Source: Trypanosoma brucei (taxonomy: Eukaryota). From it: DNA of 64,000 bases. Shown here one piece after another: positions 7,910-64,000 of the stretch. Each line of letters begins with the position of its first letter. The stretch's first letter is position 1. The stretch is from the NCBI GenBank assembly GCA_000002445.1, contig CP000067.1, positions 416,001 through 480,000 on the forward strand, in the 5' to 3' direction. The position numbers were made by a program, and so were the translations under genes. The notes beneath the pieces were generated by a model, which was not told where the DNA came from, made no database searches, and saw nothing but the letters and a program-made list of their open reading frames with translations.

Positions 7910-9110
7910 ATATATACGCTGTTGAATGCCAAACACAACCTCCTTCTCTTTTTTTCTTTTTCTTTTTTTGCTCCCCTTCCAATTCTTAACTTCCAGCTGG
8001 CACTTCTCTTTTTTTTTTTTAACTTATATTTCCTTTACCCTCTTCTCCTTCGCCACGTGTTCTTCCAGCCACAGTTTAGTTGCACGAGGCCACGTGTCTC
8101 TGCCCTAAGAAGAAAGAAGGAAAAGAAAGAAAAAAGTGACGTGTGATGTTGTCACGTTTGTTTTTATTTCAGCTTTCTTCTCTCTTTTTTTTTTTTTGCG
8201 CTTTTCTCCCACCTACTTTTGTTGCCTTTGAATACAATTTAGCACTTTTACATACGACTAAATGACAGTATTTGTCAAGGAAGAAAAAAAGAGGAGAAAG
8301 GAAGAGGAGAGGAGAGTAATTAGTGAAGTAGTTACATGCAACATCTAGACAAATTTATACATTTCCGATTATTTATTTTATTTTATTTTATTTTATTTTT
8401 TGCATCCTTCCACCCCGTCATCCATCCATTCCGCATGTTTCCTTTTTTTTTTTCCTCCCTCTCTTTCTCTTTGTTTAGAGGACGAGTCTCATCGCAAGAG
8501 TGCAATACACTCGAGAAGTGGGAAACACAAACACAAACACAAAAAAGAAAAAAAGAAAACAGAAAGAAGGGAAGTAATGGAAAGAAAGAATATCGACCAC
8601 AGTTTCGTTTGGTGAACTGCGTGCATACATGTGGTGCGACAAAAGGCACATGCACACACACACATGCACACACATAAAAAAAAAAAAGAAAAAAAAACGG
8701 AACCGTAGACACAAGGAGGAGGAGGATAATAATAATAATAACAATAAAAGTCATAAAACTTTATTATCCGTCTCCATACGCTCCCCTCCTTTTTTTCTTT
8801 TCTTCCTCATTCCCACTTTCCGTTTTATCTGATTGCACTTTAAATAATATTAAGTTTGTCTGTTGTTTCTTCACCTTCAGACATCTCCAGCTATCATACA
8901 GAAACATACACAGAAACAAACACAACCTCTTCACTATTCTTTCACACAAATGACGGTACGCTGTTGGTCAGTCCGATCAAGTTAATAAAGAGAGAAAAAT
9001 AAGTTTCATCAGCATCAACAACACCGCCATCAACACAAAAAACAAAAAACAAAAACATCAACAACAAAAACAACATCAACACACAACGAACGAGGACAGG
9101 TTAGGCCACT

Positions 9111-32464: not shown

Positions 32465-33754
32465 TTACTTCTTCGATTTCCTCGGGGCTGCGGTTGTGGT
32501 GGCGCCACCTTTCGCCTTGCGCTCCGCGGCACGGGCAGCACGTTCCTTTCGGAGGCGCTCCTCGCGGCGGATGCGATCCTTCTTGAGTGGACCATACCAC
32601 TGGCTCTTTTCCTTCTTCGTCTGGAATCGACCATGACCGATTTTACTGCTTGTGTCGATAAACTTCAGCGTAATCTTCTCCGTGAGTTTGCGCGATGTTT
32701 GCGGGGCCATGGGGCGACGGAGTGTGATGACACGGCGACGAGGACCGGCAACAGAACCCTTCAGCATCACGTAGTCGTTGCGGACAGTACCGTAGCCAAC
32801 AAAACCACCCATCGGAGTGATGGTCTTAGCGGTAAGATCATAAGCAGTTGTGGCTTGGTTGGGTTCCATGGAAACTGCACGACCGAGCTGGTAAATCTTC
32901 TTGTTGAGGTGTGTACGGTGGTGGTAACCATGCTGACCAGCACGAGCAACGGTGTACATGACACGAGACGGATGCCATGCGCCAATGCACGCAACCTTAC
33001 GTAGACCACGGTGAGTTTTACGTGGTAGGCACGCAACACCCCAACGTTTCACGACACCAGTGAAACCATGGCCCTTAGTCACAGCGCACACGTCACATGC
33101 CTCCGACTGTTGGAACACAGAGTCGATGCGAACTTCCTTCTCAAGTAGCGATTTGGCGAGTTCAATCTTCTGCGCAATGGTGCCGCCGTTAATTTGGATC
33201 TCGCTTACGTGAGCCTTCTTCACACCAACGCGGTTGTTGCGCAGCTTGCGGAGTTGCGTGTGTGCCACCACACGGATGATGTCAGCCTTCTTTTCGAATG
33301 CCTTCAACGTCCGTGCTTCAGCGAGACGTCCCTCTGTTGTGCGAGCGAACTGCTTGCGCTTCGTGAAGGCGAGCTGTGCGGACTGTTTCCAGTTCTTGTA
33401 GAAGCGCCGGCGGAATTCCACGCTGGTGTGGTGTGCCCACACGGTGCCAATCGTCTTGTGGCCCACAGGTGTCTGCCGATAGCCAACAATTCCGACAACA
33501 ACCATCGGCGGTGCCTCAAGAATTGTCACTGGTTCCACAACCTCTTTCTTGTTCACCTTTGACCCCGGACGGTCGACATCACGCACAATATGCGTCATAC
33601 CAGCCTTGTACACCATGAAACTGGTGAGATGAGGTTTCTGTGAGGGATCATCCTTGGGGAAAGAACGTGCTCGGCCACGAATCTGACGGCTGCGTTTGCG
33701 GGGAAGGAACCCAAGATGGCCGTGACGGGGGTGCTCGAACTTGCAGTGAGACAT
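32465..33754 (-). CDS. RPL3: 60S ribosomal protein L3 (tandem copy 1)
   Basis: Starts with canonical L3 "[21 protein letters not shown]", ATG at 33754; the 480-aa ORF-track version extends upstream into UTR-derived sequence. 429 aa, K/R-rich C-terminal tail. Confidence 0.9.
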
Positions 33755-34118
33755 GTTGGTGTGCTCGCTTGTTCCTAGTGCAATTCGCGCAATTATATGT
33801 GACAACAAAGTAAAAGTGATAATTACAGATAAAGAAAAGAGAGAAAGAAAAGGGGAAAAGGTAACCGTGCGGTTAATGAGCCTAAATAAATTAAGCAATG
33901 TCAGCATTAAAGATTTGGCGACCTACTACAAGGAAGTAGCCAACACACTACAACCTGTACAGAGGAAAATAACTACCCGACAAATTTTCAGAAGAAAAAT
34001 AAAATAAAAATTAAAAAACAAAAATTAAAACATTATGTGGAACAAATTATCAGCACACAGTGACCATACGAAGGCACACTCGCTGTAAAATCGGGCGAAA
34101 AACCAACAGGTGAGCTGC

Positions 34119-35408
34119 TTACTTCTTCGATTTCCTCGGGGCTGCGGTTGTGGTGGCGCCACCTTTCGCCTTGCGCTCCGCGGCACGGGCAGCACGTTCC
34201 TTTCGGAGGCGCTCCTCGCGGCGGATGCGATCCTTCTTGAGTGGACCATACCACTGGCTCTTTTCCTTCTTCGTCTGGAATCGACCATGACCGATTTTAC
34301 TGCTTGTGTCGATAAACTTCAGCGTAATCTTCTCCGTGAGTTTGCGCGATGTTTGCGGGGCCATGGGGCGACGGAGTGTGATGACACGGCGACGAGGACC
34401 GGCAACAGAACCCTTCAGCATCACGTAGTCGTTGCGGACAGTACCGTAGCCAACAAAACCACCCATCGGAGTGATGGTCTTAGCGGTAAGATCATAAGCA
34501 GTTGTGGCTTGGTTGGGTTCCATGGAAACTGCACGACCGAGCTGGTAAATCTTCTTGTTGAGGTGTGTACGGTGGTGGTAACCATGCTGACCAGCACGAG
34601 CAACGGTGTACATGACACGAGACGGATGCCATGCGCCAATGCACGCAACCTTACGTAGACCACGGTGAGTTTTACGTGGTAGGCACGCAACACCCCAACG
34701 TTTCACGACACCAGTGAAACCATGGCCCTTAGTCACAGCGCACACGTCACATGCCTCCGACTGTTGGAACACAGAGTCGATGCGAACTTCCTTCTCAAGT
34801 AGCGATTTGGCGAGTTCAATCTTCTGCGCAATGGTGCCGCCGTTAATTTGGATCTCGCTTACGTGAGCCTTCTTCACACCAACGCGGTTGTTGCGCAGCT
34901 TGCGGAGTTGCGTGTGTGCCACCACACGGATGATGTCAGCCTTCTTTTCGAATGCCTTCAACGTCCGTGCTTCAGCGAGACGTCCCTCTGTTGTGCGAGC
35001 GAACTGCTTGCGCTTCGTGAAGGCGAGCTGTGCGGACTGTTTCCAGTTCTTGTAGAAGCGCCGGCGGAATTCCACGCTGGTGTGGTGTGCCCACACGGTG
35101 CCAATCGTCTTGTGGCCCACAGGTGTCTGCCGATAGCCAACAATTCCGACAACAACCATCGGCGGTGCCTCAAGAATTGTCACTGGTTCCACAACCTCTT
35201 TCTTGTTCACCTTTGACCCCGGACGGTCGACATCACGCACAATATGCGTCATACCAGCCTTGTACACCATGAAACTGGTGAGATGAGGTTTCTGTGAGGG
35301 ATCATCCTTGGGGAAAGAACGTGCTCGGCCACGAATCTGACGGCTGCGTTTGCGGGGAAGGAACCCAAGATGGCCGTGACGGGGGTGCTCGAACTTGCAG
35401 TGAGACAT
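34119..35408 (-). CDS. RPL3: 60S ribosomal protein L3 (tandem copy 2, protein identical to copy 1)
   Basis: Identical 429-aa product. Period to copy 1 is 1654 bp. ATG at 35408. Confidence 0.9.
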
Positions 35409-36479
35409 GTTGGTGTGCTCGCTTGTTCCTAATGCAATTCGCGCAATTATATGTGACAACAAAGTAAAAGTGATAATTACAGATAAAGAAAAGAGAGAAA
35501 GAAAAGGGGGAAAAGTAAGCGTGCGGTTAATAAGAATAAAGGGAGTAAGCGGCGGTGAGCGCTAGTCAGCACCGGCGCCTTGTGTTGTTGGGTATTCATT
35601 TGCTGTTTTGAAAGAAATGTGAGTAAGCGGTTGTAGTGTATCTTACTCATCTAACCGATGCTTAGATCTGTTTGCTGTGTTGTCTGTCCCTTCGGCACTT
35701 CAAATTCTTGGATGCATGTGTTTCGAGACGGGAGGCTCATTATGTATTTCATATACTCCCAGCAAGCCACTTAATGGATTGGCCTTTGTCAAGTACAGCA
35801 GTATCTCATTGTAAGTGGTGTTGGCATCGCATTACCAGGTGTGGTGAACACTTGGTAGACATATCCAACTCCTGCTTACAGGAGTTCCACGCCCCCAAGC
35901 CCACCAAATATTAGTAGCAAAACAGACCATCATCGTCTTAAACGTTGGGCGCTTTCAACCCGCATTTTCTAATATGCGGGTTCGTTGTAACTAGCGATCA
36001 CTCACCATGCCTTCATACCCTTACTACCTTTTAACTGCATTCGACCAAACGGCAATTGCAGTTGAGAGCACAGTTGTCGAGAAGTGAAAGAGTAACACAC
36101 GTTGTGGACCGAAAAACAGTTACAACTTTACCGATAAGGGTATGATGCCACCTGCAAGACCGGGATCGTGGAAAATGCACCCATCACAGGCAACGTCGCT
36201 AACGCCGCTGTCGCGCTTTTCTTCACGCGCACTCGCGGACGGATATTATCAGAGAGATGTATTGGGGATTTCATCATGGCAGACGGAGGCGCCACCTAAA
36301 AAAAAAAAATTCGCAACGATCGGTTACACCTCGTCCTTGCATAATGAGTAACAACTCACATCTCATTTTTGTCGTAATCAGCAACCACGTGCCCAGAGGC
36401 TGCATGTTCCCATCACGCCGCCAACTTCCACCACTGCTCTTTTCGGCACGCGCACTGCTCAACCACATACTGGCGCTGT

Positions 36480-52187: not shown

Positions 52188-53498
52188 TCAACTGTCACCT
52201 GAAAAGTAATGTGCGAAGGCAAAAGGACTCAAACACGCAACGAGATTGTCACTTCCCCCCCTCACGACCGTATCGTAAACGTTAAATTCCAATTCCACAC
52301 GATCTTTCCCCGCTTGCACCTGCCCTCGTAGAAGTGCCACCGCCCCCTTATTACCATGCATTCCACAATAGTTTGGGGCTGAGAAAAGAGTTAATACGAG
52401 ACCACCGTGACACCACATATAACCCTCACGGGCGCATTGATGACCGCGCAGGATGAATTGCATTCCAGGTTTCATCTCTCCTATTAGTTGCCTCTTCGAG
52501 GGAGGAAATCCATAACTGTAGTTGCGGTCAAGGAAAGACCTCGTGACGTCTGGCCCGAATATGAAACCGCAGCCCCGATTATTCATTTGACATCCACTAA
52601 CTTGGTCTTCCGGATCGGACCACAATAAACCATCTATCACGAGGCGAGCCTTCGCTCCAGGGCCCTCCAACATGTCATCGCCCCCCCTCGATGTTGGAGT
52701 ATAAAATGTGTCCTCAAAATCATCCACCATGCCGTACTCATTACGGCGGAGTGATCTCAATAGTGGAACTGACAAGGTGTGAGGGCTGAGACCACCATGA
52801 GTGCAGAAGAACATACCTGAAGGACAGGCCACAACAGCAGCTAATGGCAACCAACAAAACACAGTGTTGTATTGAAGCCATGTGCTACTCGTTATATCCA
52901 CGCTAGCTGGCCCGCGATCTCCCGTCCCCTCTAATTTAGACTTGCATTCCTGAAAGAAACCATAGAGGCGGGATGTCTGCGCCTCCTCGTGGTTGCCACG
53001 CAATAAGAAGATGTGCTCGGGGTATTCCACCTTTAGTGCAAATAATAAAGTGATGACCTCCAGGCTTTGAGGCCCGCGGTCCACATAATCGCCGAGAAAT
53101 AGAAACTTGTATATCTCTGTGGAAGGTGATCCGCGACCGTCCGTTGCCTTAGTGTTGTTGAGGTTTAACTGAATAGAGAGTACATTACTGAGCATATCTG
53201 CAAATTGACCATGAATATCACCGACAATAACCAAGTTGTCTTGTCGTGGTATGGCAATCTCTAGCACCGTGTTCTCACTTTCAAGCACTTCCTTCGTGTC
53301 TTGGCATAAAATACCGGCCTGCGCAGCGCCACGGGGAAGTGCATCAACGATGGAAACACTTTGCAGTAGGTCCGAAATCAGCTGTGTGTACTTTCCTACA
53401 GCAGGTGGCGTGGTGCTTGGTGGATAAAAGTACACCAGTTCCTCCAAATTCCCTTCCTCTTCTTGCATATGTTGTAGAGTACTTATCGTTTGAATCAC
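52188..53498 (-). CDS. PPP-family Ser/Thr protein phosphatase (kinetoplastid-type with inserts)
   Basis: Metallophosphatase motifs "GDIHGQ", "FLGDYVDRGPQSLEVITLLFALKVEYPEHIFLLRGNHE" and "HGGLSP". A C-terminal "SDP...GCGF.FG" region is present. Confidence 0.8.
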   Translation of the reverse strand: MIQTISTLQHMQEEEGNLEELVYFYPPSTTPPAVGKYTQLISDLLQSVSIVDALPRGAAQAGILCQDTKEVLESENTVLEIAIPRQDNLVIVGDIHGQFADMLSNVLSIQLNLNNTKATDGRGSPSTEIYKFLFLGDYVDRGPQSLEVITLLFALKVEYPEHIFLLRGNHEEAQTSRLYGFFQECKSKLEGTGDRGPASVDITSSTWLQYNTVFCWLPLAAVVACPSGMFFCTHGGLSPHTLSVPLLRSLRRNEYGMVDDFEDTFYTPTSRGGDDMLEGPGAKARLVIDGLLWSDPEDQVSGCQMNNRGCGFIFGPDVTRSFLDRNYSYGFPPSKRQLIGEMKPGMQFILRGHQCAREGYMWCHGGLVLTLFSAPNYCGMHGNKGAVALLRGQVQAGKDRVELEFNVYDTVVRGGSDNLVACLSPFAFAHYFSGDS

Positions 53499-53539
53499 TC
53501 ACCCACTGTGCCCAATATGTGTCAATACGCGTGGCTAAG

Positions 53540-53543
<4 letters not shown>

Positions 53544-53570
<27 letters not shown>
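53544..53570. repeat. (TA)n microsatellite
   Basis: tatatata run immediately upstream (on the coding strand) of the PPP phosphatase gene. Confidence 0.9.
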
Positions 53571-55895
53571 ATGTGTAGATGTAAGATACAGGTGGTACTG
53601 CGTCGGAGTGGAGGATGCTTTATTAATGAATAACCAACGACGTTCAGTTACCGACTTTTGCTCCCTGCTTTACTGTCGCTTCTTATTTTAATTAATTTAT
53701 TTTTTCCCTTTGCTCTAAACTCCTCCTTTGCTCTCCTTTTCAACTTTCCACCCCTTCCCTACGGGCACGGGGCGTGACAAAAGCTGAAGGGTTACGGACA
53801 AGTTTCCCCCTCTTGACCAGAGGTGATGCGTTCTAAACTGAGCAAATAACAGGAAGTTTGGGGGGAGGGAAGGGCACAAAAAAGAAAAAAAAATAATAAT
53901 AATTAAAAAGAAAAGAAAAGGGAAAGAAAAAGGAAAGAAGAAAATGCTGAGAAGAGATGCAAACAAATGGCAATGATGATGAAATAAATCAAAATGAAAA
54001 AGGAGAGAAACACGAACAAGTGGGTTTCAACAGAAAGAGAGAGAGAGAGAAAGAAAGAGAAAGAGGGGAACAACTCGTTTGAACAAATGTGTAATTGTAA
54101 GAGGGGAAAAAATATATTGATATGACGTTGATTGCGGCAGTCGCTGAAAAAGGAACTCACAAATTCCTCAGAGGTGAGATTTGGGGGCGCAGCATTACAC
54201 AACAACAAGTAACGACTAAATGGTATGAAAAACGTCTTATGTCTTTTGATTTATTTATTTATTTATTTTTCTTTCTTTTTTCTTTTTCTTTTGACAAAAA
54301 GGGGAAGAGTTCCTTTATTCTCTTTCCCATCGCTTCCTTTTCTTTTGTTCCTTCTCCACACGCTCACTCCAACGTAACCCTCGTCCCTTCATCATCTTTT
54401 TTTTTTCCAACAACTGAAGGGAGAAGTGCACAAGTTGAAAAAAAAAGAAGAAAGAGTGCACGGCGCCTCCCAACACAATGCCCCACACTGTGCCATTGTC
54501 AGAAGAATAACAACATTAATAAAAACAATAATAATGGTGATGGTAACAACAACGGTAACAAAAATAAAAACTGTTATAATTATAAATATAATAAATATAA
54601 TAATAAAACAAAAAAAGAAGTGTTGTGAAAGGGATTATGACATGCAACAACTCATTACCCAACCATCACCAAAGAAAAACAAAACAAAAACACACACGAA
54701 CATGACAAAAAGCACAACATTTCTCCGTAAATACAAACAGTCCATTCCTAAAAATGTTATGACTTTTAATCATTACTTATCGTCCCCTTTTCCCCCTTTT
54801 TCGCTTTTCCCATTTTTTTTTAAAAATTACTTCATTCCACTTCGCCAAACCCGCTGAGCATAACAAAACTACGATTGGTCATACTCGTCCCCGCTCACCA
54901 AAAAAAAAAAAAACAACAACAACAACACAAAAACACACACACGAAGCAGGCGCACAAACAACGATGATACAAATAAAAAGAAAAACGAAAAAAAAAAGAA
55001 AGAAGAAAAAAAACACACACACACACGTAAAGAGAGGAAGGGATTATTACAAACTCAAAAAAAAAAAGGAAAAAAGACACATCATCCTTTCTTTTTCTTT
55101 TTCGTTTTCTTTTTGTTTTTCTTTTTTTCTTTTCTTCCTTTCCCTCTTTTCTTTTTCTGTGTCTCGTCCTGCTCATAACAGCTGTAACGGAACAATAATA
55201 ATAAGAATAACAATAACATTAATAATAATAATAAAGAAGTGCTTGCGACACTACACACAAGCACACAAAGATGAATATATATATATAAAAGAAAGACAGC
55301 AACGATGACACGGTAAAAAAAAAAGGAAAAGAAAAGAAAAAAAAAGGAAAAAGGGATTTAAAGGAAAGGGAAAGGAAAAAAATGATGATAAGGAAGGGAG
55401 AAGAAAAACCAAAAGGATGGTAGAAGCCATAAAAATCGTTGTTGTTGTTGTTGTTGTTATTTTTAACCACATCAGTAAAGGGGTAAAACATTAACAACAG
55501 TAACAGTAATAATAGCAACGGAAAAAGATGAAAACGGAGGGGGAAAAAAAAGTAGGAAGATGTGGGAATCTTCAAACCTTCTCCTTTTTTTACCTTTTAT
55601 TTCTCTTTTTCTCTTTCTCCTCCTCACCTTTTTCTTTTTTTTTTTAAAATCACTTCCGCTCAATTTCATTATTATTATTATTATTATTATTTTGTTGGTG
55701 CTGTTTTTTTTTTCTTTTTAAAAACTTCCTTCCTCCCTTCCTTTTTTCCTTTTTTTTTCTCGCTTATTCATTCGTCCTCTCATTCTCCCTCTCTCTTTTT
55801 TTTCTCTCTCTTTCCCCCCCCTTCACATCTTAACCATAAATCACTCACTCATTCACACGTTCACAACCAAACAATTCCTTTCAATATCTCCGCCT

Positions 55896-56080
55896 CACTT
55901 CACTTCACTTCACTTCACTTCACTCTCTTTTCTTTTCTTTTCTTTTTTTTCTTTTTCTTTTTTGCATGTTAAATATTGCCGCAAAACATTTTACAATACG
56001 ACATGAACTCACAAATATATACACATACAAAAAAAAAGAAAAGAAAAGAAAAGAAAAGAGAGTGAAGTGAAGTGAAGTGG
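55896..56080. repeat. Near-perfect inverted repeat with (CACTT)n-(CTTTT)n arms of ~50 bp and a ~78 bp spacer
   Basis: Left arm 55896-55950: "cacttcacttcacttcacttcacttcactctcttttcttttcttttctttttttt". Right arm 56029-56080: "aaaaaaaaagaaaagaaaagaaaagaaaagagagtgaagtgaagtgaagtgg". The right arm is the reverse complement of the left, apart from pentamer unit count. Confidence 0.85.
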
Positions 56081-57083
56081 GAGCGCGCGTAATTTTTTTT
56101 TTTAAAAACAACAAAAAAAGAAGGAATGAATGAAATAAGTGATGCACAAATGAGTGGAGATATGCTTGCGTCTGCGTCTGCACGAGGAGAGAGAAAAAAG
56201 TGCCACAAAAAGAAAAAAAGAAAGAGAAGAAAACTATGCTCGACCCTGATACGAAATGGAAAATAAATAAATAAATATTGAAGAGACACGAAGATACATA
56301 TACATGACGGCATAAATACATGAATACATACATAAATATAAATATACACAGACGCAATACAACATAGCAAATGCCTCAAAACGGAGATGCAAGAGACAAG
56401 AGTAAAACAAGCAAAAGAAAAAAAAAGAAAAAAGAAAAAAGAAAAAAAAGGAAGCACCGCCTCAGATTTTGTTATTTTAGGTTCGATTTCCTTTTCTCTT
56501 CTTGTCTTTCTTAAATTATTTCTTTTGGACTCTTGTCAGTTTCGCATGGCATTTGTGATCGGCACGTTGCGGAGGCGTTTTCATACGGATGTACAACAAA
56601 AACTCCCCTCCCCTCCCCTCCGCACACGCATCCAAATGTATATGTGTACATAAATTTTTATGTACAAATATATTTTACCAGTCTGTTCTTCTTTTCTTTT
56701 CTTTCTCCTTTTCTTTTTCTTTTTCTTTTCTTTTTCTTTTCCCTTTCTCTTCTTGTCGTGCAGTAACGGGAATAAATAATACAAGAAAGGAAGGATGATG
56801 CCTCGACAGATGATCAACAATAGCAAAAAAATAACAGAAAGCGGAGACGGGGAATAAAACAAAACAATCAAACGTTAATCCTTCACCTATTCTTCCATCA
56901 AATCCCACGTCCCCTACTTCCGTTTTTTTTTCATTTTTTTTTTCTGCTCTGCCTGATGCATTTTCCCCCATCTGTTTCCATTATTTTTTTTTTCCTTAGA
57001 AAAAAGAACCGCTGTGGCGGTAGTGACGCTACTACGAAAACGAAAAAGAAAAAAAAAGGCAGGTAAAACATCTGTACAAAAAC

Positions 57084-58004
57084 CTAGTCATCCCTTCGAC
57101 TACCAATAGGATCTAAAACTTGTAGCCCATTGGCTTGTATGGAGGAACGCCCAGACTCGCATCGCCTACCATTCCCTTGACTACTAGACCTCTCACAACT
57201 TGTTGAAGTGGTTTGTTTGCTCAATGGCGTCATCGCCCGCTTTATTGTTGTCTTCGAGGGTGTCGCAATACTTCGTCCATCATTGCTGCAACTTTTTCCA
57301 GTACCGCCGAGACTGAGTTTCTTTTCTTTCCTTCCACATGAAAGTGGTGTATTTGTCCTCAACACAAGTGTCGCCTCCGTATCCCGAATGGCAATTGTGC
57401 TACTGCTAAGCTTTGGAGCTGGTGAGTTGCCAGGTTGCTCATGACCGGTTCTACTAAGAGGTGCTGTGCTGCGACCACTTGATTTCTGTCCCTCTGCGCC
57501 TAAAGGGGGAAGGGCACAATTATGGCTAATATCTTTCCCTCCTCGTGGGGGTGGTGTGATGTTTTGGGGAAGTGGTAACAACGACGGAACGACGACACGC
57601 GGTGAGCTCATTGCATTGGGACCGTAACGTACCCACGTGTTCGATAACCCGCTGTCGGATGAATACCCAACACCACACTCGTCACATGTGGACGCCGCTG
57701 AATCCTTTCCTCGAAGTTTTGCGCTGAGATCACGCAGGGGGCTGACATTTTTCATCCGTACCTCCGAGCGCGGACTGCTGGTACAACTCCCTCCAGCATT
57801 TACCATTGCGAGAATTGCACTGGAGCCTGCTGGAGTTGTTGCGCCGTGTTCACTGCGATTATGTGGGGATGAGAGCGTTGTTTGAAGATGAGGCACCAAA
57901 TCACTGTCAAGACGCACACCTCGCAAAAGCAACTCATCCTCCCATGTGATGCTGGAAACACGCGTCTTACCAGCCATGCCATCAGGACTATGCTGTCGCA
58001 GCAT
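57084..58004 (-). CDS. Hypothetical Ser/Pro-rich low-complexity protein
   Basis: 306-aa ORF on the transcribed strand, S/T/P-rich. It does not look like repeat translation. No domains recognised. Confidence 0.35.
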   Translation of the reverse strand: MLRQHSPDGMAGKTRVSSITWEDELLLRGVRLDSDLVPHLQTTLSSPHNRSEHGATTPAGSSAILAMVNAGGSCTSSPRSEVRMKNVSPLRDLSAKLRGKDSAASTCDECGVGYSSDSGLSNTWVRYGPNAMSSPRVVVPSLLPLPQNITPPPRGGKDISHNCALPPLGAEGQKSSGRSTAPLSRTGHEQPGNSPAPKLSSSTIAIRDTEATLVLRTNTPLSCGRKEKKLSLGGTGKSCSNDGRSIATPSKTTIKRAMTPLSKQTTSTSCERSSSQGNGRRCESGRSSIQANGLQVLDPIGSRRDD

Positions 58005-59400: not shown

Positions 59401-60191
59401 GGCGCGTAAATGATGAATCTATGCCTTTCACACGCCTTCTTCAAATATATATATATACGTGTGTGCGTGAGAGAGAGAGAGCATTTCATTATATATATAT
59501 ATATATATATAAGAAGGTATACGAAATACTTTACAGAGGAAATGATGATATGGTCAACCGTCAATCTGTCCAACTTTTGTTTTCCTCCTTTAAAACGAAT
59601 TGGATTTTGCAGCTTCAGTATAATAAGTTTACTGATATGAAACACTGACCCTTTCCATGAGGTTCCCTTCAGTCATTGTTCTCTCTTCCACGTCCCGTGA
59701 ATGTGGAAGAGAGAACAATGACTGAAACACAACACTGGGAAGTTCTCACACATACTCCGCTATGAAAGGAAACAACAACAAAAAAGGCTAAACGGAAACT
59801 TTTGCCTGACTGCATCAGATAAAAACAGCCAGACCATCCATCCAGCATTCATCCTTTAAACAGAATACAATGTAGTCACCTTCCCTCACCACTATATGTA
59901 TATATCTTTTATATTTCTTTTACCTCTTTTGTTATACGCTGCTTACATCTTTTAATCGAATATTCACTTGGGTGTGAGGGCCTAAATTGCTAGCGAAAAA
60001 GGGAAATGTACTTCACAGTTTGAAGAAAAGCACTTGTAACCCACACAGACAATTTCTTTATTCAATCCCCCACCTTTCCTCAAGATATCATCAACATGTA
60101 GTGTGCTGGAAAGTGACGAGTGTGTTGAGTGCTTGCTTTCAGATGTTCAGACAGAGAACCAAAGAGAGACAGCGATAAGTGCGGAAACCAA

Positions 60192-61331
60192 CTAAAAACG
60201 GGGTCGCCGCCTTCGCATGGTGTATTTTGTGTCTTCTGATGTTTTAAGGCCAAACTTGCGCCGCTCCGCCTTCTTAAGAAGAACCCACTCCTTCGTTCCA
60301 GTTACGGGACGATTGTCCTTTCGGCGACGTGCACCCGCCTGCCGCCCTCCATGACTACGCGACCGCTTGTGTGCCACTCGACCCCCCACGCGGGCCCCAA
60401 ATCGTTGTCCCTCATCATTTTCCTCCTCACCTTCTTCTTCTCCATCCTCTTCCTCACATTCCTCCTCCTCTTCCACCTCTTCACCTCCTTCATTGCAGAC
60501 AGAGAGTGGACGTGGAGGCATAAAACCACCCGCTACTTGGCCGGCTTGCACGACAAGGTAATGTTTCTTCGCTTTTGTGCTATGAGGAAAGTCTACCACG
60601 ACACCACCAGAGAAACCACATAGCATGGCGGCTCTCGTGATCATATGCAGTTGTTCAACGTTAGCAGGGTAAAACTGAATTGCAGCCTTCGCCCCACGGC
60701 GGAGGGCATTGTAGAGGCATTGGAAAAGAGCACGCAACCGTCTTTGTGGAACTTGGCCGCGGCGGTCACTTTGACAAAGCCACTGCACGGCAGAAATTGA
60801 GACGGCACCATCAAATGCACCCGGGCGGAAGGGAAGTCCCTCACCCATATCTCCTCGCATGACCTCAACTATCGATGGTCCCGGTGGAAGAACAGCTTCA
60901 GCCTCATTTCCATCGCCGTCAGTGCTGTCATGGTCATCATTCTCATTCTCATTCTCATTTTCATCATGAATTGGACCCCAACGCACATCTCGCAAGTCCA
61001 CACCTTCTATTGGTCCCTCATCCTCCTTTTCATCATCTTCCCGCATTAATTCCTCTGAAGCCTTTGCCATTCCGAGCATATCCGTACTAATATCAATCCC
61101 AATCCATGTATGGCCACACTCTCGCAAAACTTCACCACTTAATCCACTACCGCACCCAACGTCGAGGAGCAGCGCCGGACACCCACTTGGAAGTGCGAGG
61201 AGCTCCAGCGCCCGCCGTGTCATGGCTCGTTGAACCATTTGTACGCGGCCGCTACGAGTGTAGCGCTGAGCCCCATCAGCATTGTAAAGAATATCGGGTG
61301 GTGCCTCAAATTCGGGACGTGTTGGCGGCAT
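60192..61331 (-). CDS. BUD23: 18S rRNA (guanine-N7)-methyltransferase Bud23/WBSCR22-like, with acidic insertions
   Basis: N-terminus "PPTRPEFEAPPDILYNADGAQRYTRSGRVQMVQRAMTRRALELL" and SAM motif I "LLDVGCGSGLSG" match Bud23. Later "AVSISAVQWLC" and a basic C-terminal tail. Asp/Glu-rich inserts are present. Confidence 0.75.
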   Translation of the reverse strand: MPPTRPEFEAPPDILYNADGAQRYTRSGRVQMVQRAMTRRALELLALPSGCPALLLDVGCGSGLSGEVLRECGHTWIGIDISTDMLGMAKASEELMREDDEKEDEGPIEGVDLRDVRWGPIHDENENENENDDHDSTDGDGNEAEAVLPPGPSIVEVMRGDMGEGLPFRPGAFDGAVSISAVQWLCQSDRRGQVPQRRLRALFQCLYNALRRGAKAAIQFYPANVEQLHMITRAAMLCGFSGGVVVDFPHSTKAKKHYLVVQAGQVAGGFMPPRPLSVCNEGGEEVEEEEECEEEDGEEEGEEENDEGQRFGARVGGRVAHKRSRSHGGRQAGARRRKDNRPVTGTKEWVLLKKAERRKFGLKTSEDTKYTMRRRRPRF

Positions 61332-62789: not shown

Positions 62790-64000
62790 TTATTATTATT
62801 TTGAAAATTTCTTTTTTCTTCTTTCCCCCTCTTTTTTTTATTCACAATCTTCCTTTTCTTCCTATCACTATCCCTAAACTTGACACATTTCCTTTCAAGT
62901 ATAAAACCCTATTTTTCCTTTTTTGTTTTTAAGAAAAAAAAAATTTCCCCTCCTTTTCCCTTTACACACCCTTTGCATATCCCACAAAAAGAAAATAAAA
63001 GATAAAAGATAAATAATAATTAAAACAAAACAACACAACAGCAGCAAAGAAGGAAGGAATAAAAAAAAAAAAAGAGAAAAAAGAGAGTTGTTTTCACTTC
63101 TTTTTTTCTTTCTTTTTTTCTTTCTTTTTTTCTTTCTTTTTTTTTTAATTATTTTTTCTTTTTTTTCCTTTGCTTTGCTTTGTCACCATCACAAAAAAAA
63201 AAAGCAAAACAACAGTTACCATCGCTATCATCATAACCGCGGCCAACTTGCTGCCACGTGGTGGAGAATATTAACAACAGGCTCTAAATGATAATAATGA
63301 AGCGTGTGTAACCGTAAGGGTAAAGGAAGCAGGTAAAAATTAAAAAAAAAACAAACAAACAAACAAACACAACTTCCGTTGATGTTCTTTCATTTGTTCA
63401 TCATTTTGCTAATGTTTCACTTCTAATTCATTTCTCCGGCTGCCATTTTCAGTAGTCTTTTTATTTTAAGTCCTCATAAGCTTCGCCCTTTTCTTTTTTC
63501 TTTTCTTTTTTTTCTTGCCTTTTTTGTTGGTTTGGTTCTAATATCCCTCTGCAACAACATACAGTTATTATTGTTATTATTATTGTTGTTGTTGTTGTTG
63601 TTTTCCCCCATCTCTCTCTCTCCTGAAATAAGTGAGTTTCTCACCAACGCAAGACAAAAAAAAAAAAGAAAAAAAAAGTGAAAAATGAAAATGAAGGAAA
63701 CAACAACTTTTCCTCCATGATGTAAAAGGAAAAGAGCCGTAAACAAAGGTTTAGGAAATTGTAAAAATAAATACAAACAAAAAAAATTTACCGATGGTTT
63801 ACACCAATTTCCTCATAAAAACTTAAAAAACAAAACAATAAAAGAAAAGAAAAGAAAAGAAAAAAAGAAAACACGTCTGGAGGAATCTTCATGCATCTCC
63901 CTTCAGCCAATGTTACACAACCTCTTTCTCTTCTTCATTTTATCACTTCTGTAAAAAAAAAAAAAACAACAATCGATTACGTCTTTTTTTCTTTTTTTCT

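Follow-up and report, generated by a model that had tools for sequence, protein, structure and literature searches.

A long inverted repeat of compound microsatellites, predicted to fold into a hairpin, between two genes of Trypanosoma brucei chromosome 4

Where a long, nearly perfect inverted repeat lies in untranslated DNA between two genes of a trypanosome, is it a selected element, or is its hairpin a by-product of the way in which the repeat arose? The question is raised by positions 55896-56080 of a 64,000-nucleotide (nt) stretch of Trypanosoma brucei TREU927 DNA (NCBI GenBank assembly GCA_000002445.1, contig CP000067.1, positions 416,001 to 480,000 of the forward strand), which is called the window here and in whose numbering positions are given. 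An initial annotation, made from the sequence alone, had seen a palindrome of pentanucleotide repeats at this place, between the gene for a PPP-type phosphatase and the next gene upstream, and had proposed that it might act as an RNA-processing or stability element, as a replication or recombination hotspot, or as a small structured-RNA locus. The explanation to which we give about half of our confidence is that a compound microsatellite underwent inverted duplication in the recent past, that templated correction or parallel slippage has kept the two arms alike, and that the hairpin is passive; most likely, that is, the hairpin is an outcome of a DNA event and not a selected element. The arms, the spacer between them, and the bases on which the comparison of strains turns are laid out as follows.

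55896-55963, plus-strand reading: left arm, (CACTT)5 CACTC TC (TTTTC)3 T8 C T5 C T6 (direct sequence, repeat calls).
55896-55963, minus strand: the 3' arm on the transcribed strand, polypurine-rich in RNA (sequence and repeat calls).
55964-56028, minus strand: spacer of 65 nt, unique and AT-rich, the hairpin loop (single copy in the window).
56029-56079, plus strand: right arm, A9 G (AAAAG)4 AGAGTG (AAGTG)3 (direct sequence).
56029-56079, minus strand: the 5' arm on the transcribed strand, (CACTT)3 CACTC TC (TTTTC)4 T9, ~50 nt and polypyrimidine-rich (sequence, inverted-repeat pair, tandem repeats).
55925: junction base of the left arm, C on the plus strand, mirroring 56060 (17-mer comparison, assembly sequences).
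56060: junction base of the right arm, G on plus and C on minus, mirroring 55925 (17-mer comparison).
55888-55895: imperfect outward stem extension, CTCCGCCT facing GGAGCGCG at 56080-56087 (fold and alignment).

Both arms follow a common formula, (CACTT)n-CACTC-TC-(TTTTC)n-Tn, and the whole locus takes up ~185 bases. When the arms were re-read as reverse complements, the long inverted repeat proved genuine: the best ungapped pairing returned by the inverted-repeat search covers 51 nt at 96% complementarity, with 72 nt in between. As had been noticed earlier, the arms differ in pentamer unit number, with five perfect CACTT units in the left arm vs three in the right and three TTTTC units vs four. 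Each is recognizable as a microsatellite (Tandem Repeats Finder calls TCACT x6.0 with 100% matches, TCTTT x7.2, AAAAG x6.2, and AGTGA x3.8), and both are nearly pure purine/pyrimidine tracts. Interruptions occur at the inner end of the left arm, the T-rich stretch of which reaches 55963; the spacer is therefore unique and AT-rich, as first described, but its truly unique part is 65 nt long, the earlier figure of 78 nt being obtained only if the count starts at 55951.

That such a structure should be a product of chance is ruled out by three counts made on the window, in line with the initial view that it is no chance microsatellite. Outside the two arms, which carry it in opposite orientation, the 14-mer CACTTCACTTCACT is absent from the window; shuffled sequence leads one to expect 0.03 matches per 64 kb. 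Perfect pentanucleotide arrays number 17; those of the AAAAG class are common (n = 8), and the AAGTG/CACTT class consists of just these two arms. Inverted pairs of at least 24 nt number 183, almost all of them polypurine vs polypyrimidine at 70-82%, and among the 25 longest found elsewhere in the window the complementarity never exceeds 82%. The two arms also have in common the 17-mer CACTTCACTCTCTTTTC at the junction between the two repeat types, and likewise an 18-mer across the same junction. Because the repeat order is the same in both, because the junction 17-mer is shared, and because (CACTT)n is found nowhere else in the 64 kb, the arms probably have a common origin, as two copies made by inverted duplication would.

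The locus stands out equally in predicted folding. As minus-strand RNA it reaches -90.6 kcal/mol (z -12.5), as plus-strand RNA -79.2 kcal/mol (z -11.6), and as plus-strand DNA -53.9 kcal/mol (z -11.2), so that the long stem-loop that had been suggested for the minus-strand precursor RNA is indeed predicted. Raw minimum free energy was rejected as the measure of an outlier because GC-rich coding windows are equally low, and the GC-corrected residual was adopted in its place, together with helix length. In a 220-nt sliding scan of the 64 kb, the locus is the top GC-corrected outlier (residual z -6.3), and its hairpin contains the longest uninterrupted helix of the window (63 bp). On both measures it keeps the rank that it had been given by eye, that of the most structured non-coding signal in the window.

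Four assemblies were compared at this locus, i.e., the TREU927 window, T. equiperdum OVI, T. b. gambiense DAL972, and the T. brucei-group assembly GCA_003543875.1. The inverted repeat is present in every one of them, and its recovery from four independent Trypanozoon assemblies rules out the assembly artifact against which the initial annotation had warned. The assemblies form two haplotype groups (the window with OVI, DAL972 with GCA_003543875.1), between which ~3% of the aligned positions of the spacer region differ. Numbers of CACTT and TTTTC units vary per arm across the four, and they do so without correlation between the arms, which points to ordinary slippage; the length of the locus varies accordingly from ~146 to 185 bp, and similar length variation of the microsatellite type is seen at other arrays of the same spacer region. 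In all four, the hairpin is kept (-60.6 to -90.6 kcal/mol, with stems of ~35-63 bp), and synteny around the locus is intact. The 65-nt spacer is identical throughout, although zero changes in a segment of this size are not significant at a background divergence of ~3%.

At the junction between the repeat types, the arms evolve in concert. The 17-mer CACTTCACT[C]TCTTTTC is present in both arms of the window and in both arms of T. equiperdum OVI (a C:G pair in the stem), and CACTTCACT[T]TCTTTTC is present in both arms of GCA_003543875.1 (T:A); in DAL972, the 3' arm carries the T version, and the 5' arm carries the T version plus one extra T. One C:G/T:A change between the haplotype groups is thus mirrored in the two arms, as expected of a concerted quasi-palindrome, and it should be noted that this is a single event, for which parallel slippage is a possible source. 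Its cause could be hairpin-templated correction or gene conversion, selection for pairing, or parallel slippage in which the CACTC unit was lost. Further out, a 5-nt extension of the stem (GGCGG) is found in the window and OVI only and is deleted in DAL972 and GCA_003543875.1. As a separate observation on the OVI assembly, which is based on short reads, its contig CZPT02000334.1 has a run of N in low-complexity DNA at about 8320-8340, ~330 nt downstream of the hairpin, and ends soon after; the assembly breaks in this spacer, and the hairpin itself is intact.

How far back the element goes can be judged from two more distant species, whose loci were reached through the proteins of the kinetoplastid-specific PPP phosphatase (kPPP) and S19e genes. 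In T. vivax the genes follow the same order (methyltransferase, 220 aa, 310 aa, PPP, S19e, SRP68), and the syntenic T. vivax spacer contains no inverted repeat of at least 20 nt. The T. congolense spacer holds only a 25-nt, 84% polypyrimidine/polypurine pair, and this pair was rejected as a homologue, its tract matching the kPPP-adjacent tract of T. brucei at least as well. Nucleotide and translated alignments of the spacers across species align coding DNA alone, all spacer matches being of low complexity, and they reveal no conserved small open reading frame (ORF) or RNA. A structure kept at the orthologous position with covariation, as expected of a conserved structured RNA, was found in neither T. 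vivax nor T. congolense. Conserved arms around a divergent spacer had been put forward as the sign of selection; what is seen is that the arms vary and the spacer is invariant among strains, with no counterpart in T. vivax and a weak match in T. congolense, an outcome that does not speak for selection. Because T. vivax lacks the inverted repeat and T. congolense has only the low-complexity pair, the element appears to be young or lineage-specific and, by this evidence, specific to the T. brucei group.

The genes on either side, and the map that ties the window to published transcript data, bear on whether the repeat reaches RNA at all.

57084-58004, minus strand: upstream gene, hypothetical protein of 306 aa, presumably Tb927.4.1880 (ORF; exact protein in T. 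equiperdum and TREU927).
52188-53468, minus strand: downstream gene Tb927.4.1870, kPPP, 426 aa (Pfam Metallophos; 100% identity to the TREU927 protein).

The identifier of the phosphatase gene, as a kinetoplastid-specific PPP, comes from the supplement of Brenchley et al. 2007, and it is because this neighbor is Tb927.4.1870 that the 306-aa gene is presumably Tb927.4.1880, for which Kolev et al. 2010 give a splice site at chr4 474068 and a 5' untranslated region (5'UTR) of 64 nt. Window positions were placed on chromosome 4 (v4, TREU927) by means of the coordinates that Kolev et al. 2010 give for splice and poly(A) sites, the chromosome position being the window position plus 416000; all 26 of the published predominant splice sites in the window show AG at the exact expected offset. 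Between the two genes lies an untranslated spacer of 3.6 kb (53469-57083, chr4 469469-473083), in which 1004 nt separate the Tb927.4.1880 stop codon from the start of the hairpin and ~2.4 kb separate its end from the Tb927.4.1870 ATG. The ORF map and the Pfam Metallophos match thus agree with the initial placement between the PPP phosphatase gene and the next minus-strand gene upstream. The description of the region as ORF-free held in that there is no credible gene, but mechanical low-complexity ORFs of 145 and 162 aa do overlap the repeat on the minus strand. All gene-size ORFs of the window lie on the minus strand, from which we infer that the whole window is one minus-strand polycistron and, since the hairpin lies inside it, that the element is transcribed. 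A strand-switch region, suggested by the shift from pyrimidine-rich to purine-rich sequence on the plus strand at this point, is excluded, as every gene of the window is on the minus strand.

Literature searches by the identifiers of the neighboring genes or by UniProt identifiers returned nothing, and the Tb927.4.1870 and Tb927.4.1880 genes are absent from the Nilsson 2010 supplements. Tables S12 and S13 of Kolev et al. 2010 are without a splice site for Tb927.4.1870 and without a poly(A) site for Tb927.4.1880; the neighbors of both genes have them. Elsewhere in the window, two tandem paralogous genes at 32465-33907 and 34119-35462, presumably Tb927.4.1790 and Tb927.4.1800 according to the splice-site table, differ at a single base in the 25 nt ahead of their mapped splice sites (33774 and 35428), and because these 25 nt are nearly identical, the duplication at 32-35 kb includes the processing signal. 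A second perfect hairpin has arms at 59668-59691 and 59703-59726 (24 nt, 100% complementary, TTCAGTCATTGTTCTCTCTTCCAC) around an 11-nt loop and is not of low complexity. The methyltransferase gene (60192-61331) has its stop codon ~470 nt upstream of this hairpin, and the ATG of a 224-aa gene follows ~270 nt downstream. The hairpin is identical in T. equiperdum OVI and in its 261-nt context (-96.6 kcal/mol, z -6.1) is the second-largest GC-corrected outlier in the window. Upstream of the same methyltransferase gene, a polypurine/polypyrimidine inverted pair at 62987-63181 (84 nt at 70%, 27-nt spacer) is typical of the weak-pair background in the spacers of the window.

If the element is transcribed, its 5' arm acquires the composition of an RNA-processing signal. 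On the minus strand, a polypyrimidine tract runs from 56079 down to 56029 and is followed by an AG:

56008-56009, minus strand: first AG past the polypyrimidine arm, ~19 nt after the T9 run, a potential trans-splice acceptor (sequence).

The arrangement agrees with what is known of such signals, in that splicing prefers the first AG to follow a polypyrimidine tract, longer tracts process better, and polyadenylation has been measured ~100 nt upstream of an active tract; by the same account, low-complexity sequence and polypyrimidine tracts abound in trypanosomatid intergenic regions (Clayton 2019, PMC6597758). In partition-function folds, however, the tract in the 5' arm has a predicted unpaired probability of 0.00, the lowest of the 85 intergenic polypyrimidine tracts in the window, whereas the tracts adjoining the kPPP gene are predicted to be open (0.75-0.88). 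The tract is thus like other trypanosomatid polypyrimidine-AG signals in composition (a U/C-rich 5' arm of ~50 nt with an AG 19 nt further on) and unlike the tracts at mapped splice sites in being predicted to be fully paired and in having no spliced-leader site in the published tables: neither Table S12 nor Table S7 of Kolev et al. 2010 puts the splice site of a gene or novel transcript here. We also tried, and gave up, a general rule by which tracts in use would be open and those not in use paired, the difference in accessibility across the window being non-significant (median 0.48 for 15 used vs 0.355 for 70 unused tracts; one-sided Mann-Whitney p = 0.13). The second most sequestered tract in the window, at 8107-8141 on the minus strand, lies between two genes (unpaired probability 0.02-0.03), and no splice site is mapped in the 120 nt that follow it.

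In the history that we favor, a polypyrimidine microsatellite of the form (CACTT)n-(TTTTC)n-Tn would have been duplicated in inverted orientation within the 3.6-kb untranslated stretch. Each arm would then have gained and lost units independently by slippage, and the likeness of the arms would have been maintained by hairpin-templated correction (template switching or palindrome-internal gene conversion) or by parallel loss of the imperfect unit. The precursor RNA, or a long 3'UTR of Tb927.4.1880, would fold into a hairpin of 35-63 bp that locks the 50-nt polypyrimidine tract onto its polypurine complement, and the most probable effect of this, an incidental one, would be to make the tract unusable as a signal for trans-splicing and polyadenylation. 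Quasi-palindromes that undergo hairpin-templated mutation (template switching) and palindromes homogenized by gene conversion between their arms offer the closest parallel. They share with the present locus two inverted arms of common origin, a haplotype difference at mirrored positions of both arms, and arms that stay near-perfect while the neighboring sequence diverges (here by ~3%). Unlike them, the arms here are compound microsatellites, so that slippage alone could drop the imperfect unit from both, and the mechanism would have to be read from one concerted event.

A purely passive history has to face several observations. The mirrored change from C:G to T:A is equally expected from selection for base pairing, and since there are two haplotype groups only, the concerted change amounts to a single event. 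The uncompensated differences between the arms are mostly A-to-G in the purine arm, where they give G-U wobbles in the minus-strand RNA; taken with the better folding of that strand (-90.6 vs -79.2), they hint weakly at a constraint at the RNA level. The buried tract, moreover, is the most sequestered of the 85, and the absence of processing sites in the spacer from the published per-gene and novel-transcript tables fits masking of the signal as well as it fits neutrality.

Of the roles first proposed, one in RNA processing or stability is possible, the 5' arm being itself a polypyrimidine tract followed by an AG. In its full form, which we regard as unlikely but worth serious attention, the hairpin would be an RNA structure selected to act in cis, by masking a cryptic processing signal: the 3' arm, transcribed ~120 nt later, would pair with the tract and exclude splicing factors, neither trans-splicing nor the polyadenylation coupled to it ~100 nt upstream would take place here, and Tb927.4.1880 would in this way keep a long 3'UTR running toward the kPPP-adjacent tracts. 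The tract and AG fit the signal rules of Clayton 2019, an active tract should yield an orphan RNA of ~1.9 kb where the spacer has neither an assigned splice site nor a novel transcript, and the complete burial of the tract, the openness of the kPPP-adjacent tracts, the mirrored junction change, and the retention of the hairpin in all four assemblies all lie in the direction that masking would predict. Used tracts are, however, not significantly more accessible than unused ones across the window, the hairpin is missing from the T. vivax and T. congolense spacers despite the same gene order, and arm length shows no sign of being constrained (stems of ~35-63 bp); non-use of the AG is not proven by the per-gene and novel-transcript tables of Kolev et al. 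2010, in which the Tb927.4.1880 poly(A) site is likewise unlisted. A more pointed version, which we hold to be distinctly doubtful, would make the 3' arm an "anti-tract," i.e., a polypurine copy positioned a short way downstream to let the RNA fold as it emerges and thereby keep the tract hidden from the trans-splicing machinery. Another fate of the same stem, improbable in our estimate, would be cleavage by the Dicers DCL1 and DCL2 into small interfering RNAs (siRNAs), which would either work in cis, by destabilizing the Tb927.4.1880 transcript, or have their targets in trans. RNA interference is active in T. brucei, and its known inverted repeats all give siRNAs (Tschudi et al. 2012, PMC3447711); like those repeats (Tb927 IR1-IR7), the locus has near-identical arms, in the same organism, with read-through transcription and possible foldback double-stranded RNA, and a stem of 35-63 bp suffices for one or two siRNA duplexes. 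The seven repeats of Tschudi et al. 2012, however, measure 422-10,011 bp and lie on chromosomes 2, 7, 8, 10, and 11, whereas the arms here are about 45-68 nt long, of low complexity, on chromosome 4, and not in the siRNA lists. The "miscellaneous" siRNA list of the same study has no chromosome-4 locus, a weak negative as low-complexity reads may be unmappable, and the study found no microRNAs (miRNAs) in T. brucei. The nearest covariance models are miRNA-precursor hairpins, which resemble the locus in overall length and in their long, almost perfect stem. Under permissive thresholds, the locus scores 60.8 bits with the plant family MIR1023 (gathering score 90) and 45 with MIR530 (gathering score 85); these scores lie far below gathering and are obtained equally on both strands, and we take them to reflect a generic long stem and not membership of either family. 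No Rfam family reaches its gathering score anywhere in the window, and the complete Table S7 of Kolev et al. 2010 lists no novel transcript between chr4 456,500 and 489,583, so that the small structured-RNA locus of the initial annotation finds no backing here. Finally, siRNAs of (GAAAA)n or (UUUUC)n would hit many tracts genome-wide, which would seem to be harmful.

At the level of DNA, the repeat might act as a hairpin or cruciform, or as a site prone to R-loops or triplexes, that stalls replication or promotes recombination. Although the predicted DNA hairpin is strong (-53.9 kcal/mol, z -11.2), the arms almost pure purine/pyrimidine, and the locus variable in length, we find this very improbable: microsatellites ordinarily vary in length in this way, as do the other arrays of the spacer region, the locus lies within a polycistron and not at a strand-switch region, and synteny is undisturbed in all assemblies. 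A spacer of 65 nt, moreover, would make extrusion of a cruciform from duplex DNA unlikely. Least credible of all, to the point of being nearly negligible, is a miniature inverted-repeat (MITE) or foldback transposable element, for which the layout would speak, with a short unique core between two terminal inverted repeats of ~50 nt, ~185 bp in total. The would-be terminal repeats are microsatellites, and there is no direct target-site duplication, the arms being bordered by CTCCGCCT on the left and GGAGCGCG on the right and the flanks (...ATATCTCCGCCT and GGAGCGCGCG...) being without a direct repeat. Neither the spacer nor the junction has a further copy in the 64 kb or in the compared loci, and a scan of a metagenome collection for the spacer gave no exact match. 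DNA transposons, besides, are not known from T. brucei.

What the locus would mean for trypanosome biology depends on which of these histories is the right one. If the inverted duplication was neutral, the locus is of small value, as a clean example from nature of a microsatellite duplicated in inverted orientation with co-changing arms and as a warning that intergenic regions of trypanosomes can come to show strong hairpin signals in the absence of function. Why some polypyrimidine tracts are favored for splicing and others go unused is an open question (Clayton 2019). Were the hairpin to mask a cryptic signal, it would be a case in which control by RNA structure over where trans-splicing and polyadenylation take place could be tested directly, and were the 3' arm truly an anti-tract, it would be an example of RNA structure deciding the usage of a tract and hence the length of the 3'UTR of the gene upstream.

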